64,000 nt of DNA, taken from NCBI RefSeq assembly GCF_044647545.1, contig NZ_CP172818.1; one strand, 5' to 3'. This DNA is from Escherichia coli. GTDB lineage: Bacteria > Pseudomonadota > Gammaproteobacteria > Enterobacterales > Enterobacteriaceae. The notes under the pieces were generated by a model. That model was not told where the DNA came from. It did no database searches and saw nothing but the letters and a program-made list of their open reading frames with translations. Of the stretch, positions 56,144 through 62,394 are shown in pieces; position 1 is the first letter of the stretch; each line of letters opens with the position of its first letter. Position numbers and translations under genes: made by a program.

Positions 56144-57193
56144 TTATTGCGCAAAGGGATTTTTCGTTTCGTATGACGTGTTATAAAGCGCGTCGGAAAT
56201 TAAATACTGGTAAATATCATCAACAATTTCGATGCCTTCGACGGCGGTTTTGCGTTGTTTAATATCCTGATCCTGTCCGGGATAATAAACCTGGTTAAAA
56301 CCGGGCGCGGGGGTAATGGCATTTAATTCGCGCATGGTCTGGCTAAGATGTTGACGGAATAATTCGCTGGAGGAGAAAAAGTTCGGATTAATAACTACAT
56401 GTAATTGCCCCAAATTACGTCCGGCGTGTAAATCGTCATACATCGAACTGACCTGACGCCCGAACGGTAAGCCGAGTAAGACGCCTGAGAGGACGTCGAT
56501 CATCATCATCAGGCCATAACCTTTCGGTCCGGCAGCCGGGAGCAGGGCGTTAACCGCGAAGGGATCGGTTGTTGGTGCACCGTTTTTATCGACCGCCCAG
56601 GTATCCGGGATAGACATATTACGCGAGCGGGCGTCGAGCACTTTTCCCCATGCCTGTACGGTAGTCGCCATATCAAAGGTAAGAATCTCGTCGCCTTTTC
56701 CCGGCGCGGCAAAGGCCAGTGGGTTAGTGCCGTAGTAAATTTCCGCGCCGCCAAACGGCACCACCATTGGATCGGACTGGCACATCGAAATGCCAATCAA
56801 TCCGGCGCGGGCTGCCTGCTGCACAAAATAAGAGATTGCGCCGCTGTGACCCATCCGGCTGATACCGACCACTGCAACGCCATTTTGCTGGGCAGTTTTG
56901 ATGGCATGTTCCATGCCCATTTTCGCCGCGACCTGTCCGGCGGCATTGTCGGCATGCAAAATTGCTGAACATGGCCCGGTTTCTTCAAGACGAAACTCCG
57001 GTTCGCGGTTGGTGCCGCCTTTTGAAATGCGTTCTGCGTAGTATTCAACGCGCACCGCGCCATGAGAGTGGATCCCTCTGGCATCGGCGTAAACCAATAC
57101 TTCAGCCACGGTTGCAGCGTGCTCACGTTTTAACCCAGCCTGGCAGAGTTTATTCTCGATTAGCTGGTGGAGTGTTTCCCGACTGATTTTCAT
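56144..57193 (-). CDS. allD: Ureidoglycolate dehydrogenase AllD
   Basis: 349-aa ORF MKISRETLHQLIENKLCQAGLKREHAATVAEVLVYADARGIHSHG. Confidence 0.95.
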   Translation of the reverse strand: MKISRETLHQLIENKLCQAGLKREHAATVAEVLVYADARGIHSHGAVRVEYYAERISKGGTNREPEFRLEETGPCSAILHADNAAGQVAAKMGMEHAIKTAQQNGVAVVGISRMGHSGAISYFVQQAARAGLIGISMCQSDPMVVPFGGAEIYYGTNPLAFAAPGKGDEILTFDMATTVQAWGKVLDARSRNMSIPDTWAVDKNGAPTTDPFAVNALLPAAGPKGYGLMMMIDVLSGVLLGLPFGRQVSSMYDDLHAGRNLGQLHVVINPNFFSSSELFRQHLSQTMRELNAITPAPGFNQVYYPGQDQDIKQRKTAVEGIEIVDDIYQYLISDALYNTSYETKNPFAQ

Positions 57194-57509
57194 CTGTCTT
57201 CCTTTTTAACGACGGTGTGAAGCATGACTGCAATTAACATACAGGGAAAATATCTGGATTATGTGATCCAGACAGGCAAAAAAATATAGTTAGAATTTAT
57301 TTGATAATCCGCTCGCTTTTAACCTGGTTTTTAAAACAACTATGCTTATTAAAAAATAACGCGTAATAGTCTGGCGGTTATTTGAATTCTTTTGTTAATA
57401 ATCCCTGTGTGATATTCATCACCTTATTTACTCGTTGTCATCGATACCGTAATCGCCACATTAACACTGCTCGTGCAATTGCCATGGGTGCAATTTTTAA
57501 GGAGTTGTT

Positions 57510-59177
57510 ATGATCCACGCCTTTATTCAAAAAGGGTGTTTTCAGGATTCGGTCAGTTTAATGATTATTTCACGAAAACTCAGCGAATCAGAAAATGTTG
57601 ATGATGTTTCCGTAATGATGGGTACGCCCGCCAATAAAGCGTTATTAGATACCACAGGTTTCTGGCATGACGATTTTAATAACGCCACGCCGAACGATAT
57701 TTGCGTGGCAATTCGTAGCGAAGCGGCGGATGCGGGGATCGCGCAGGCGATTATGCAGCAGCTTGAAGAGGCGCTAAAACAACTGGCGCAGGGGTCAGGC
57801 AGCAGCCAGGCGTTGACGCAGGTGCGTCGCTGGGACAGTGCCTGTCAGAAATTACCCGACGCCAGTCTGGCGCTGATTTCAGTGGCTGGCGAGTATGCGG
57901 CGGAGGTTGCGAACCAGGCGCTGGATCGCAACCTCAACGTGATGATGTTCTCCGATAACGTCACGCTGGAAGATGAAATCCAGCTCAAAACCCGCGCACG
58001 CGATAAAGGCTTGCTGGTGATGGGGCCAGACTGCGGTACGTCGATGATTGCCGCCACGCCGCTGGCTTTTGCTAACGTGATGCCGGAAGGCAACATTGGC
58101 GTCATTGGCGCTTCCGGTACCGGGATTCAGGAACTGTGCTCGCAGATTGCGCTTGCAGGGGAGGGAATTACCCACGCGATTGGTCTTGGCGGGCGCGACC
58201 TCAGCCGTGAAGTGGGCGGCATCAGTGCGCTAACGGCGCTGGAAATGTTATGCACCGATGCGAAAAGCGAAGTGCTGGCATTTGTTTCAAAACCACCTGC
58301 CGAAGTTGTGCGTCTGAAAATTGTTAATGCCATGAAAGCAACCGGCAAACCGACGGTGGCGCTGTTTTTAGGTTATACCCCGGCGGTGGCCCGCGACGAG
58401 AATGTCTGGTTTGCCTCCTCGCTTGATGAGGCCGCACGCCTGGCTTGCCTGCTTTCACGCGTCACGGCGCGACGTAACGCAATAGCACCTGTCAGCAGCG
58501 GATTTATTTGCGGTTTGTATACCGGCGGTACGCTGGCTGCTGAAGCGGCGGGATTACTTGCCGGACACCTTGGCGTGGAAGCCGACGATACCCATCAACA
58601 TGGCATGATGCTCGACGCCGACGGACATCAGATCCTCGACCTGGGCGATGATTTTTACACCGTCGGGCGTCCCCATCCGATGATCGACCCGACCTTACGC
58701 AACCTGTTAATTGCCGATCTCGGCGCTAAACCGCAAGTGCGCGTGTTGCTGCTTGATGTCGTGATTGGCTTCGGTGCGACTGCCGATCCTGCCGCCTCGC
58801 TGGTGAGCGCCTGGCAAAAAGCCTGTGCCGCGCGTCCAGACAATCAACCACTGTATGCCATTGCCACGGTGACAGGCACCGAACGTGACCCGCAATGCCG
58901 CTCGCAACAAATCGCCACGCTGGAAGATGCGGGGATCGCGGTCGTGAGTTCGCTGCCGGAAGCCACCTTGCTGGCGGCAGCGTTAATTCATCCGCTCTCG
59001 CCTGCCACACAGCAACACACACCGTCATTACTGGAAAACGTCGCCGTGATTAACATCGGATTACGCAGCTTTGCGCTGGCGCTACAAAGCGCCAGCAAAC
59101 CGGTTGTGCATTACCAATGGTCGCCAGTCGCCGGCGGCAATAAAAAACTGGCTCGTTTATTAGAACGTTTGCAATAA
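57510..59177 (+). CDS. fdrA: FdrA (succinyl-CoA synthetase alpha-like; proposed oxamate carbamoyltransferase component)
   Basis: 555-aa ORF MIHAFIQKGCFQDSVSLMIISRKLSESENVDDVSVMMGTPANK. Confidence 0.93.
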   Translation: MIHAFIQKGCFQDSVSLMIISRKLSESENVDDVSVMMGTPANKALLDTTGFWHDDFNNATPNDICVAIRSEAADAGIAQAIMQQLEEALKQLAQGSGSSQALTQVRRWDSACQKLPDASLALISVAGEYAAEVANQALDRNLNVMMFSDNVTLEDEIQLKTRARDKGLLVMGPDCGTSMIAATPLAFANVMPEGNIGVIGASGTGIQELCSQIALAGEGITHAIGLGGRDLSREVGGISALTALEMLCTDAKSEVLAFVSKPPAEVVRLKIVNAMKATGKPTVALFLGYTPAVARDENVWFASSLDEAARLACLLSRVTARRNAIAPVSSGFICGLYTGGTLAAEAAGLLAGHLGVEADDTHQHGMMLDADGHQILDLGDDFYTVGRPHPMIDPTLRNLLIADLGAKPQVRVLLLDVVIGFGATADPAASLVSAWQKACAARPDNQPLYAIATVTGTERDPQCRSQQIATLEDAGIAVVSSLPEATLLAAALIHPLSPATQQHTPSLLENVAVINIGLRSFALALQSASKPVVHYQWSPVAGGNKKLARLLERLQ

Positions 59178-59186
59178 GGGGTTCCC

Positions 59187-60446
59187 ATGTTTACATCAGT
59201 GGCGCAAGCCAATGCTGCGGTTATCGAACAAATTCGTCGTGCTCGTCCACACTGGCTGGATGTGCAACCGGCTTCTTCACTTATCAGCGAACTAAACGAG
59301 GGCAAAACACTGCTTCACGCCGGGCCGCCAATGCGCTGGCAGGAGATGACCGGACCCATGAAAGGGGCATGTGTGGGCGCATGTCTGTTTGAAGGCTGGG
59401 CGAAAGATGAAGCGCAGGCGCTGGCAATGCTGGATCAGGGGGAAGTGAACTTCATTCCTTGTCACCATGTGAATGCCGTCGGGCCAATGGGCGGCATTAC
59501 TTCTGCCAGTATGCCGATGCTGGTGGTCGAGAACGTGACCGACGGCAACCGGGCGTACTGCAACCTCAACGAAGGTATCGGCAAAGTGATGCGTTTTGGC
59601 GCTTACGGCGAAGATGTTCTGACTCGCCATCGCTGGATGCGCGATGTGTTAATGCCAGTATTAAGCGCGGCGCTGGGGCGCATGGAGCGCGGTATCGATC
59701 TCACCGCGATGATGGCGCAGGGCATTACCATGGGCGATGAGTTCCATCAACGCAATATTGCTTCCTCAGCACTGTTAATGCGTGCGCTGGCCCCACACAT
59801 TGCTCGCCTCGATCATGATAAACAGCACATCGCGGAAGTGATGGATTTCCTCAGCGTGACCGATCAGTTCTTCCTTAACCTCGCGATGGCTTACTGCAAG
59901 GCGGCGATGGATGCTGGTGCGATGATCCGCGCAGGCAGCATCGTCACGGCTATGACCCGCAACGGCAATATGTTCGGGATTCGGGTAAGCGGGCTGGGCG
60001 AACGCTGGTTTACTGCGCCTGTAAACACTCCCCAAGGGCTGTTTTTCACCGGCTTCTCGCAGGAGCAGGCGAACCCGGATATGGGCGATAGCGCAATTAC
60101 CGAAACCTTTGGTATTGGCGGTGCGGCGATGATCGCAGCGCCTGGCGTAACGCGCTTTGTCGGTGCGGGTGGCATGGAAGCGGCCAGAGCGGTATCTGAA
60201 GAGATGGCGGAAATCTTCCTTGAACGCAATATGCAGTTGCAGATCCCCGGCTGGGATTTCCAGGGCGCGTGCCTGGGGCTGGATATTCGTCGCGTGGTAG
60301 AAACCGGCATTACGCCGCTCATCAATACCGGAATCGCCCATAAAGAGGCGGGGATCGGGCAGATTGGCGCAGGCACTGTGCGGGCACCGTTGGCCTGCTT
60401 TGAACAAGCGCTGGAAGCACTGGCTGAAAGCATGGGGATAGGTTGA
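59187..60446 (+). CDS. ylbE: DUF1116 protein YlbE, intact 419-aa reading frame
   Basis: 419-aa uninterrupted [51 protein letters not shown]; 9 nt after the fdrA stop. Confidence 0.9.
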
Positions 60447-60456
60447 GGAACGCGCA

Positions 60457-61272
60457 ATGACGATCATCCATCCTCTGCTTGCCAGCCGTAGCGCACCGAA
60501 TTATCGCCAGTCCTGGCGGTTAGCGGGCGTGTGGCGGCGGGCGATTAACCTGATGACGGAAAGCGGCGAACTGTTAACGCTGCATCGTCAGGGTAGTGGT
60601 TTCGGCCCCGGAGGATGGGTGCTTCGCCGCGCGCAATTCGATGCGTTATGCGGTGGATTATGCGGCAATGAACGACCACAGGTTGTGGTTCAAGGGATTC
60701 GCCTCGGGCGTTTCACGGTTAAACAGCCACAGCGTTATTGTTTGCTGCGTATTACGCCGCCTGCGCATCCTCAACCGCTTGCAGCGGCATGGATGCAACG
60801 CGCGGAGGAAACCGGGCTTTTCGGGCCGCTGGCGTTGGCGGCAAGCGATCCGCTGCCTGCTGAATTACGCCAGTTTCGTCACTGTTTTCAGGCCGCGCTC
60901 AATGGCGTTAAGACCGACTGGCGGCACTGGCTGGGTAAAGGCCCCGGATTAACGCCAAGTCATGATGACACGCTGAGCGGAATGCTGCTGGCGGCCTGGT
61001 ATTATGGCGCTTTAGATGCGCGCTCCGGTCGCCCGTTTTTTGCCTGTTCCGACAATCTTCAACTCGTTACCACAGCGGTGAGCGTTAATTATTTACGTTA
61101 TGCCGCGCAAGGATATTTCGCCTCGCCACTCCTGCACTTTGTTCATGCTCTGAGTTGCCCGAAACGTACCGCAGCGGCGATCGATTCGCTGCTGGCGCTG
61201 GGGCATACGTCAGGGGCCGATACGCTGCTGGGGTTCTGGCTTGGCCAACAATTATTACAAGGAAAACCATGA
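60457..61272 (+). CDS. ylbF: DUF2877 protein YlbF
   Basis: 271-aa [51 protein letters not shown]; stop overlaps the ybcF start (ATGA). Confidence 0.9.
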
Positions 61273-62162
61273 AAACACTGGTTGTGGCTCTTGGGGGCAA
61301 CGCCTTACTCCAGCGCGGTGAGGCGCTGACGGCAAAAAATCAATATCGCAATATTGCCAGTGCTGTGCCCGCGCTGGCGCGCCTGGCCCGTTCTTATCGT
61401 CTGGCGATTGTTCACGGCAACGGGCCGCAGGTGGGGCTGCTGGCGTTACAGAATCTGGCGTGGAAAGAGGTAGAACCGTATCCGCTGGATGTACTGGTGG
61501 CGGAAAGCCAGGGGATGATTGGCTATATGCTGGCGCAGAGCTTGAGCGCACAGCCGCAGATGCCGCCTGTCACGACGGTGCTGACGCGCATTGAGGTTTC
61601 GCCTGATGATCCGGCGTTTTTGCAGCCAGAGAAGTTTATTGGTCCGGTTTATCAGCCAGAAGAACAAGAGGCACTGGAAGCGGCTTACGGCTGGCAGATG
61701 AAACGTGATGGTAAATATTTACGCCGGGTGGTGGCGTCTCCGCAACCGCGTAAAATTCTCGACAGCGAAGCCATCGAGTTGTTGCTCAAAGAGGGGCATG
61801 TGGTGATTTGCAGTGGCGGCGGCGGTGTGCCTGTGACGAAAGACGGGGTAGGGAGTGAAGCAGTGATTGATAAAGATCTCGCCGCTGCGTTGCTCGCCGA
61901 GCAGATTAATGCCGATGGACTGGTGATCCTCACCGATGCTGATGCGGTATATGAAAACTGGGGAACGCCGCAGCAACGTGCCATTCGCCATGCCACACCG
62001 GATGAGTTAGCGCCATTTGCCAAAGCCGATGGTTCGATGGGGCCGAAGGTAACGGCGGTGAGTGGCTATGTCAGAAGCCGTGGTAAACCTGCGTGGATTG
62101 GGGCGTTATCGCGGATTGAAGAGACGCTGGCGGGCGAAGCGGGGACCTGTATTTCGCTGTAG
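61269..62162 (+). CDS. ybcF: Carbamate kinase-like protein YbcF (ArcC family)
   Basis: Track ORF 61155..62162 trimmed to ATG at 61269 ([39 protein letters not shown]). Confidence 0.93.
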
Positions 62163-62191
62163 TGATGGGCACCAGGCAATTGGCACATCTA

Positions 62192-62378
62192 GCCTGATGC
62201 GATGCTGGCGCGTCTTATCAGGTCTACAGGCGGTGTCGGAACGGTAGGCCGGATAAGGCGTTCACGCCGCATCCGGCAATCGGCACACCATGCCTGATGC
62301 GATGCTGGCGCATCTTATCAGGCCTACAGTCGGTGTTGGAACGGTAGGCCGGATAAGGCGTTCACGCCGCATGCGGCA
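62192..62378. repeat. BIME: two tandem copies of a REP-pair unit (about 87 bp each, period about 100 bp)
   Basis: Unit 1 at 62192..62278 and unit 2 at 62292..62378, each GCCTGATGCGATGCTGGCGC.TCTTATCAGG.CTACAG.CGGTGT.GGAACGGTAGGCCGGATAAGGCGTTCACGCCGCAT.CGGCA, differing at only a few positions. Confidence 0.85.
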
Positions 62379-62394
62379 AGAAAATGAGCATCAA

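Follow-up and report, generated by a model that had tools for sequence, protein, structure and literature searches.

The 64,000-nucleotide (nt) stretch of Escherichia coli DNA analysed here (assembly GCF_044647545.1, contig NZ_CP172818.1; hereafter the window) carries fdrA, ylbE, ylbF and ybcF, four genes which we identify with high confidence as the allFGHK operon of the oxamate branch of anaerobic allantoin catabolism, encoding the oxamic transcarbamylase AllFGH and the carbamate kinase AllK. The assignment of function to these genes has already been published (2012-2025), and the locus is a known system and a member of the AllFGH family. In the pathway described in the literature, ureidoglycolate is oxidized by AllD to oxalurate, which AllFGH converts with phosphate, in a Mg2+-dependent reaction, to carbamoyl phosphate and oxamate, the latter being excreted (PMC11326118); AllK then uses the carbamoyl phosphate and ADP to form ATP and carbamate, which decays to NH3 and CO2. 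The four genes lie in the window as follows:

57510..59177, + strand: allF (fdrA), 555 amino acids (aa), ATG start, from the open reading frame (ORF) list
59187..60446, + strand: allG (ylbE), 419 aa, ATG start, intact, from the ORF list
60457..61272, + strand: allH (ylbF), 271 aa, ATG start, from the ORF list
61269..62162, + strand: allK (ybcF), 297 aa, annotated ATG at 61269, the start overlapping the allH stop

Experimental basis of the assignment

FdrA (AllF), YlbE (AllG) and YlbF (AllH) are the three subunits of the oxamic transcarbamylase, or oxamate carbamoyltransferase, EC 2.1.3.5 (PMC11326118). A preliminary description of this DNA, made from its letters alone, had pointed to fdrA, ylbE and ylbF as the obvious candidates for this enzyme and mentioned that the assignment had been proposed. 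That was correct, as in 2012 the CanOE context method had assigned the orphan oxamate carbamoyltransferase precisely these three candidate genes (PMC3364942). The literature check that it called for shows that it understated their status, the assignment having since been both published and demonstrated. Deletion of fdrA abolishes oxamate formation (Kim et al. 2021, PMC8550087), and single as well as triple deletions of allF, allG and allH result in the loss of oxamate production in vivo (Kim & Kim 2024, PMC11326118). Wild-type oxamate levels are restored only by allFGH together, with allFG and allGH giving partial complementation of 7% and 16%, respectively (PMC11326118). Furthermore, purified AllF-AllG-AllH converts oxamate and carbamoyl phosphate to oxalurate, detected by liquid chromatography-mass spectrometry at m/z 131.008; the reaction depends on Mg2+, has its optimum at pH 9 and shows a KM of 1.3 mM for carbamoyl phosphate and one of 36.9 mM for oxamate (PMC11326118). 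As for the fourth gene, YbcF has been purified and kinetically characterised as a catabolic carbamate kinase (Kim & Kim 2022, PMC9843812). The prior description of ybcF as a carbamate kinase homologue is likewise supported by full-length matches of AllK to two carbamate kinase equivalog models, NF006926 (617 bits against a cutoff of 416) and TIGR00746 (425 bits against a cutoff of 358).

Gene layout and operon structure

All four genes are free of internal stop codons and intact, and their products differ from those of MG1655 at 15 of 555 (AllF), 5 of 419 (AllG), 4 of 271 (AllH) and 4 of 297 (AllK) residues, i.e. they are 97-99% identical to the characterised K-12 proteins. This is the same locus as the K-12 allFGHK genes (b0518, b4572/b0519, b0520 and b0521), with identical gene order, spacing and gene lengths. 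The differences amount to strain-level polymorphism only, namely 9 substitutions in the promoter region and a longer spacer containing a repetitive extragenic palindromic (REP)/bacterial interspersed mosaic element (BIME) repeat. Of the 5426 complete E. coli genomes, 5401 contain a 6-kb query around the locus at a coverage of at least 80%, with these four genes annotated, and the arrangement is therefore real and conserved rather than a chance pattern of ORFs. The query is 100% identical to several complete genomes, and in the RefSeq annotation of the identical sequence fdrA, ylbE, ylbF and ybcF close the allantoin cluster, whose order is allS-allA-allR-gcl-hyi-glxR-allW-allB-ybbY-glxK / allE-allC-allD.

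The preliminary description had the four ORFs as co-directional, with gaps of 9-10 nt and an ATGA overlap, and a direct reading of the junctions bore out every detail: fdrA and ylbE are separated by 9 nt, ylbE and ylbF by 10 nt, and ylbF and ybcF overlap by 4 nt through the ATGA at 61269-61272. Shine-Dalgarno-like purine runs (AAGGAG, AAGGGG, GAGGAA and AAGGAAA) precede the four starts. For ybcF the mechanical ORF list begins at an upstream TTG at 61155, whereas the annotation uses the ATG at 61269. In a consensus scan none of the three internal junctions showed a promoter-like or terminator-like site. Over the region as a whole it returned 2 promoter-like sites against 3.5 expected and 3 terminator-like sites against 6.1 expected, counts that lie below expectation and hence signify no more than chance. 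A weak terminator-like hairpin inside allK (61373-61387) was considered as a possible break in the operon and rejected, being within chance expectation. In K-12, reverse transcription PCR (RT-PCR) across all two-, three- and four-gene junctions showed in 2022 that fdrA, ylbE and ylbF are transcribed together with ybcF (PMC9843812). Being co-directional, tightly spaced, without internal signals and co-transcribed, the four genes constitute a single operon, as the preliminary description had supposed.

It is very unlikely that the four genes are instead separate units, with allK or allGH driven by promoters of their own and the tight spacing incidental. A short, slightly AT-rich stretch was noted before ybcF in 2022 (PMC9843812), and co-transcription as detected by RT-PCR is compatible with additional internal starts. 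However, with gaps of 9-10 nt and an ATGA overlap a promoter could lie only within coding sequence, none of the junctions carries a promoter-like or terminator-like match, a four-gene RT-PCR product was detected (PMC9843812), and the gene order is kept in distant taxa.

The operon is flanked by the following features:

57194..57509, + strand: allD-allF divergent intergenic region, 316 nt, 35% G+C, with the allF operon promoter and regulator sites
62169..62368, no strand assigned: REP/BIME element made up of two 100-nt units in tandem, with two REP-type hairpins apiece
56144..57193, - strand: allD (ureidoglycolate dehydrogenase), divergent, context outside the operon, from the ORF list and annotation

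The preliminary description had the operon ending at a BIME repeat. The repeat is indeed present, as a direct repeat of two 100-nt copies that are 90% identical, folding into REP-type hairpins in both the minimum free energy and the centroid folds (z = -3.5). E. coli genomes have 35 matching places each at the median, as fits a dispersed REP/BIME element, and dispersed copies occur in all genomes; the repeat sits between the convergent allK and purK genes. The part of the claim that concerns the transcript end is less secure: the element is probably the 3' end or stabiliser of the allFGHK transcript. The allK-purK spacer (62163-62394) measures 232 nt here and 194 nt in MG1655, which together with the two tandem REP-pair units in the window implies that the copy number or composition of the BIME varies between strains.

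Domain architectures and the acyl-CoA synthetase alternative

Pfam assigns to AllF the PF02629 CoA_binding and PF00549 Ligase_CoA domains (the two E values being 2e-35 and 8e-13), to AllG PF06545, 'Oxamate carbamoyltransferase subunit AllG' (E 8e-98), to AllH PF11392, 'Oxamate carbamoyltransferase subunit AllH' (E 2e-29), and to AllK AA_kinase. The NCBIfam model NF004760 (FdrA) matches AllF with 1029 bits against a cutoff of 433; NCBIfam release 20 contains no model for AllG or AllH. DUF1116 and DUF2877 were the previous names of the YlbE and YlbF families, in keeping with the earlier description of these two as DUF proteins. The locus shows the hallmarks of the AllFGH family, in that it co-encodes the three subunits (HMA_AllF_N with a succinyl-CoA synthetase (SCS) alpha-like region and Ligase_CoA; PF06545; PF11392) and links them to a carbamate kinase gene, allK overlapping allH, with the divergent allDCE genes upstream. 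In identical genomes the RefSeq/PGAP products of window positions 57510-61272 are called 'acyl-CoA synthetase FdrA', 'DUF1116 domain-containing protein' and 'DUF2877 domain-containing protein', and the MG1655 record names FdrA 'putative oxamate carbamoyltransferase FdrA'.

The SCS-alpha-like nature of FdrA, also part of the preliminary description, is supported by Pfam, by NCBIfam and by matches to SucD structures. AllF residues ~86-290 align to SucD, the SCS alpha subunit, with E values ranging from 4e-11 for the best match, an archaeal SucD, to 1e-3 for matches to SucD structures, and residues 336-491 form the Ligase_CoA domain. The structure 3DMY in the Protein Data Bank (PDB) covers AllF residues 82-555; it is without residues 1-81 (57510-57752), the N-terminal HMA-like domain. 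PF27530 HMA_AllF_N is assigned on AllF homologues, and this N-terminal domain is well conserved in distant homologues; in AllF it takes the place of the N-terminal glycine-rich CoA-binding strand of SucD. We compared the motifs of the two proteins in a MAFFT alignment of five AllF sequences (39-62% identity) with E. coli SucD. In this alignment AllF keeps the GPDC motif, C175 corresponding to SucD C123, and the S202-G-T204 motif, corresponding to SucD S153-G-T155. In SCS structures the SGT motif of SucD is the N-terminal end of the alpha 'power helix', by which the phosphoryl group is held. The phosphohistidine of SucD, in its GHAGA loop, has no conserved counterpart in AllF: its position is taken by F332, and by F, K, Y, T and K in the five AllF sequences, with no conserved histidine nearby, although the alignment there is uncertain and the phmmer alignments of AllF with SucD stop before this loop. 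Only one histidine, H389, is invariant in the five AllF sequences; it belongs to a GRPHPMIDP insertion within the Ligase_CoA domain. D296 of AllF (58395-58397) lies in the short segment ARDENV, at which AllF ceases to resemble SucD, directly ahead of the place of the SucD phosphohistidine loop; FdrA D296Y is a published gain-of-function variant (PMC8550087). Pfam detects no ATP-grasp domain in AllF, AllG or AllH, and the AllG and AllH models gave no ATP-grasp structural match. From these motifs AllF looks like a remnant of SCS 'site I', able to bind phosphate or an acyl phosphate, and not like a CoA ligase.

The comparison with SCS and other nucleoside-diphosphate-forming acyl-CoA synthetases (SucD; the SucC C-terminal domain) therefore has two sides. 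AllF shares their alpha-subunit fold and their GPxC and SGT motifs, and the chemistry of AllFGH is formally analogous to that of SCS site I (acyl-X + Pi -> acyl phosphate + X). AllF differs from SCS in that it lacks a conserved phosphohistidine and an ATP-grasp subunit, needs neither CoA nor nucleotide, bears the HMA-like domain in place of the first CoA-binding strand-loop, and has two unrelated proteins as partners. It is correspondingly hard to credit that FdrA is an acyl-CoA synthetase, e.g. an oxamate:CoA or oxalate:CoA ligase that removes oxamate, with YlbE and/or YlbF alone acting as the transcarbamylase. This idea finds favour in the RefSeq product name, the Pfam CoA_binding and Ligase_CoA assignments and the 2012 CanOE paper, which read FdrA in this way (PMC3364942), but is already largely refuted. 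The fdrA deletion abolishes the production of oxamate and not its consumption, no activity of a succinyl-CoA synthetase was detected, and the promoter is not inducible by oxamate (PMC8550087). Moreover, purified AllFGH works with oxamate, carbamoyl phosphate and Mg2+ only, without CoA or ATP (PMC11326118), and the lack of a conserved counterpart to the SucD phosphohistidine, the absence of an ATP-grasp partner from the operon and the replacement of the CoA-binding strand likewise speak against a ligase.

Predicted roles of the subunits

Across four distant loci, identity to the E. coli protein is 74, 49, 72 and 62% for AllG and 62, 39, 55 and 47% for AllF, as compared with 61, 46 and 47% for AllK (with no value for the second locus) and 30, 29, 26 and 31% for AllH. 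Thus, AllG is the most conserved of the three subunits, exceeding even the adjacent carbamate kinase, and AllH the least. AllG is 93% identical to its Salmonella counterpart and 71-88% across Enterobacterales and Orbales; an alignment of 24 AllG sequences has a mean column identity of 81% and ~200 invariant columns. Invariant AllG residues include C92-H93-H94, K133, R136, D184-E185-H187, R258 and D298/D301. No functionally characterised structural relatives were found for the AllG or AllH models. For AllH a sequence search against the PDB gave a single match, dismissed as due to chance (E 0.96). The AlphaFold2 model of AllH has a predicted local distance difference test score (pLDDT) of 96, and its family (PF11392) comprises 3356 representative clusters at 50% identity, with the invariant motifs GxGxGLTPxGDD (160-171), TT..S (205-209) and GHTSGxD...G (249-259).

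We tentatively suggest a division of labour, as one possibility among several, in which AllG might be the catalytic core, AllF might contribute the site for phosphate or carbamoyl phosphate, and AllH might act on the substrate side or as an accessory. AllG is placed at the core because, of the three subunits, it is under the strongest constraint and its fold stands apart, and it was counted in favour of this role that both of the working partial complementations, allFG and allGH, include allG. AllF would supply a pocket for phosphate or carbamoyl phosphate derived from SCS 'site I'; as it keeps the GPDC and SGT motifs but is without the phosphohistidine, the reaction would involve neither a phosphoenzyme nor CoA. 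AllH would be a fast-evolving accessory or substrate-binding subunit.

Several points weigh against the assignment of the enzyme or against these roles. The K-12 enzyme was assayed in the reverse direction only, oxalurate being unavailable, the product was not completely assigned by nuclear magnetic resonance, and the enzyme has a very high KM for oxamate (PMC11326118). Complementation by single genes was inconsistent, with allG failing to complement its own deletion, and with a His-tag on AllH alone AllF and AllG were washed away during purification (PMC11326118), so that a stable ternary complex is not proven. The structure libraries searched hold no ligand-bound structure of AllFGH, and a literature search covering 2023-2026 found no paper on its structure or mechanism in the library searched. 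The subunit roles rest on five-sequence alignments with an insecure MAFFT placement of the SucD histidine loop, and confidence in the AllG model is only moderate (pLDDT 73.5), its residues 297-358 being badly resolved in the prediction.

Distribution of the family and relationship to other transcarbamylases

The AllFGH family spans Enterobacteria, Firmicutes, Anaerolineae, comammox Nitrospira and ammonia-oxidising archaea, and environmental genomics already applies the allFGHK names, among others to ammonia-oxidising archaea and comammox Nitrospira (PMC12625717). The gene order allF-allG-allH-carbamate kinase is met with again in distant loci (L005/L006 and L007) in which AllH is 26-31% identical to the E. 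coli protein. In L005/L006 a gene for a major facilitator superfamily (MFS) transporter lies directly upstream of allF, with a LysR regulator nearby, and in a further locus (L003) the order MFS-allF-allG-allH is followed by a LysR gene, with the carbamate kinase gene upstream on the opposite strand. A puc-type cluster, which runs the whole way from urate to oxamate, has the order allC, allF, allG, carbamate kinase, allE, allD, allantoinase, 2-oxo-4-hydroxy-4-carboxy-5-ureidoimidazoline decarboxylase, uricase, 5-hydroxyisourate hydrolase, permease, deaminase, pucR and allH. This PucR-regulated cluster (L015, 65-17286; also L013/L014) joins the aerobic urate steps to the allantoin/oxamate genes, with allH 10 kb away beside pucR, indicating that the three subunit genes need not be contiguous. 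That AllH might act there independently of AllF and AllG was entertained and rejected, as allF, allG and the carbamate kinase gene lie 10 kb upstream in the same cluster.

Some members depart further from the E. coli arrangement. In an Anaerolineae metagenome-assembled genome (GCA_004297445.1; L004, 1-11448) allF and allG are flanked by an amidase and a cyclase gene, after which come genes for a molybdopterin xanthine-dehydrogenase-like large subunit and an amidohydrolase, and then allH, with FAD and 2Fe-2S subunits upstream and a xanthine/uracil permease downstream. No carbamate kinase gene is present in the part of this contig examined, and the AllFGH-type enzyme encoded there may serve a different N-heterocycle pathway. 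Another variant (L010, 1283-4922; L011) begins with allH (349 aa), followed by a shorter allF (500 aa, no CoA_binding match) and lastly by a gene for a 365-aa product, which extends to the contig end and has no Pfam match on record, the genes having overlapping stops and starts. Taken together, the distant loci lend independent genomic support to the assigned role, and they hint that some members may act in other N-heterocycle pathways. Closer to E. coli, AllG and AllH homologues occur in Klebsiella (K. quasipneumoniae, K. spallanzanii and K. pasteurii) and Raoultella, and papers on hypervirulent K. pneumoniae place fdrA/ylbE/ylbF within the allantoin island. The statement that K. pneumoniae is without these genes (PMC11326118) is hence strain-dependent at best.

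AllFGH catalyses the same type of reaction as the classical transcarbamylases, namely PyrB aspartate transcarbamylase (ATCase), ArgI/ArgF ornithine transcarbamylase (OTCase), putrescine transcarbamylase and YgeW, i.e. a reversible transfer of the carbamoyl group between phosphate and a nitrogen acceptor. As with catabolic OTCase and putrescine transcarbamylase, its carbamoyl phosphate is passed on to a carbamate kinase, which makes ATP. Pfam finds no OTCace_N or OTCace domain in AllFGH, which thus falls outside the ATCase/OTCase family and appears unrelated to its fold. The arginine and agmatine deiminase pathways share the logic that a ureido compound is phosphorolysed to carbamoyl phosphate, from which a co-operonic carbamate kinase (ArcC there) yields ATP and NH3. 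They differ from AllFGHK, in which the donor is oxalurate, the phosphorolysing enzyme is unrelated and oxamate is an excreted dead end. That the oxamate carbamoyltransferase is encoded elsewhere, e.g. by the ATCase/OTCase-fold paralogue YgeW, which an earlier prediction, as cited in PMC11326118, had as oxamate transcarbamylase, with the allFGH effect being indirect, would fit the absence of Pfam similarity of AllFGH to the classical enzymes, but is the least credible of the alternatives and already refuted, unless the in-vitro activity of AllFGH is that of a co-purifying contaminant, by the lack of oxalurate-forming activity in lysate of the allF deletion strain, by the activity of purified AllFGH (PMC11326118) and by the synteny of allFGH with carbamate kinase and allantoin/urate genes in unrelated lineages. 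Neither separate promoters or terminators between the four genes nor a transcarbamylase encoded elsewhere, the two findings against which the preliminary description had set its proposal, came to light.

The promoter region

The operon is in all likelihood expressed as one transcript from the allD-allF intergenic region, activated by AllS and ArcA under anaerobiosis with allantoin. The promoter is induced by allantoin anaerobically (Kim et al. 2021, PMC8550087), and both AllS and ArcA activate it and are required for expression of an allF'-'lacZ fusion (Kim & Kim 2025, PMC12535856). In electrophoretic mobility shift assays (EMSA) AllS binds a fragment at -203/-144 from the ATG and ArcA-P one at -142/-83 (PMC12535856). 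Transferred to the window, these coordinates correspond to 57307-57366 and 57368-57427, respectively.

The intergenic region is 97% identical to that of MG1655. All 9 substitutions in its 316 nt fall within 57315-57403 (89 nt), the remaining 227 nt being identical, and this 89-nt stretch coincides with the AllS and ArcA EMSA fragments. The segment 57300-57430 is polymorphic across E. coli, with 85 of 4590 matching genomes at least 99% identical and 1448 at 90-95%. At 57468-57490 (+ strand) the presumed 5' leader contains a terminator-like hairpin followed by a T-run, ~20 nt ahead of the Shine-Dalgarno sequence of allF; it may mean nothing, given that chance alone would give more such matches in the region than the total found.

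Significance

The contribution of the present analysis to this known system is modest, and consists of the comparison of AllF motifs and of the phosphohistidine position, the conservation of AllG, the search for characterised relatives of AllG and AllH, which found none, and the recurrence of the cassette. RefSeq names lag behind the literature while Pfam already carries AllG and AllH; with these outdated names and no NCBIfam model for either protein, thousands of genomes under-report the pathway. It is possible, though we regard the combination as rather doubtful, that AllG is the true carbamoyl-transfer catalyst, that AllF is a module derived from SCS alpha/beta which has lost CoA binding and the phosphohistidine and only presents phosphate or carbamoyl phosphate, and that some members of the family, such as that of the Anaerolineae locus, act on N-carbamoyl compounds other than oxalurate. 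Were all of this true, AllFGH would represent a second, independently evolved class of carbamoyl-phosphate-forming phosphorylases. The conserved residues described above are direct targets for work on the mechanism and quaternary structure of this non-canonical three-subunit transcarbamylase. For E. coli itself, the locus fills what was the final enzymatic gap in the anaerobic breakdown of allantoin (purine nitrogen), as published in 2021-2025, and allFGHK explains the recovery of the third NH3 and of one ATP per allantoin.

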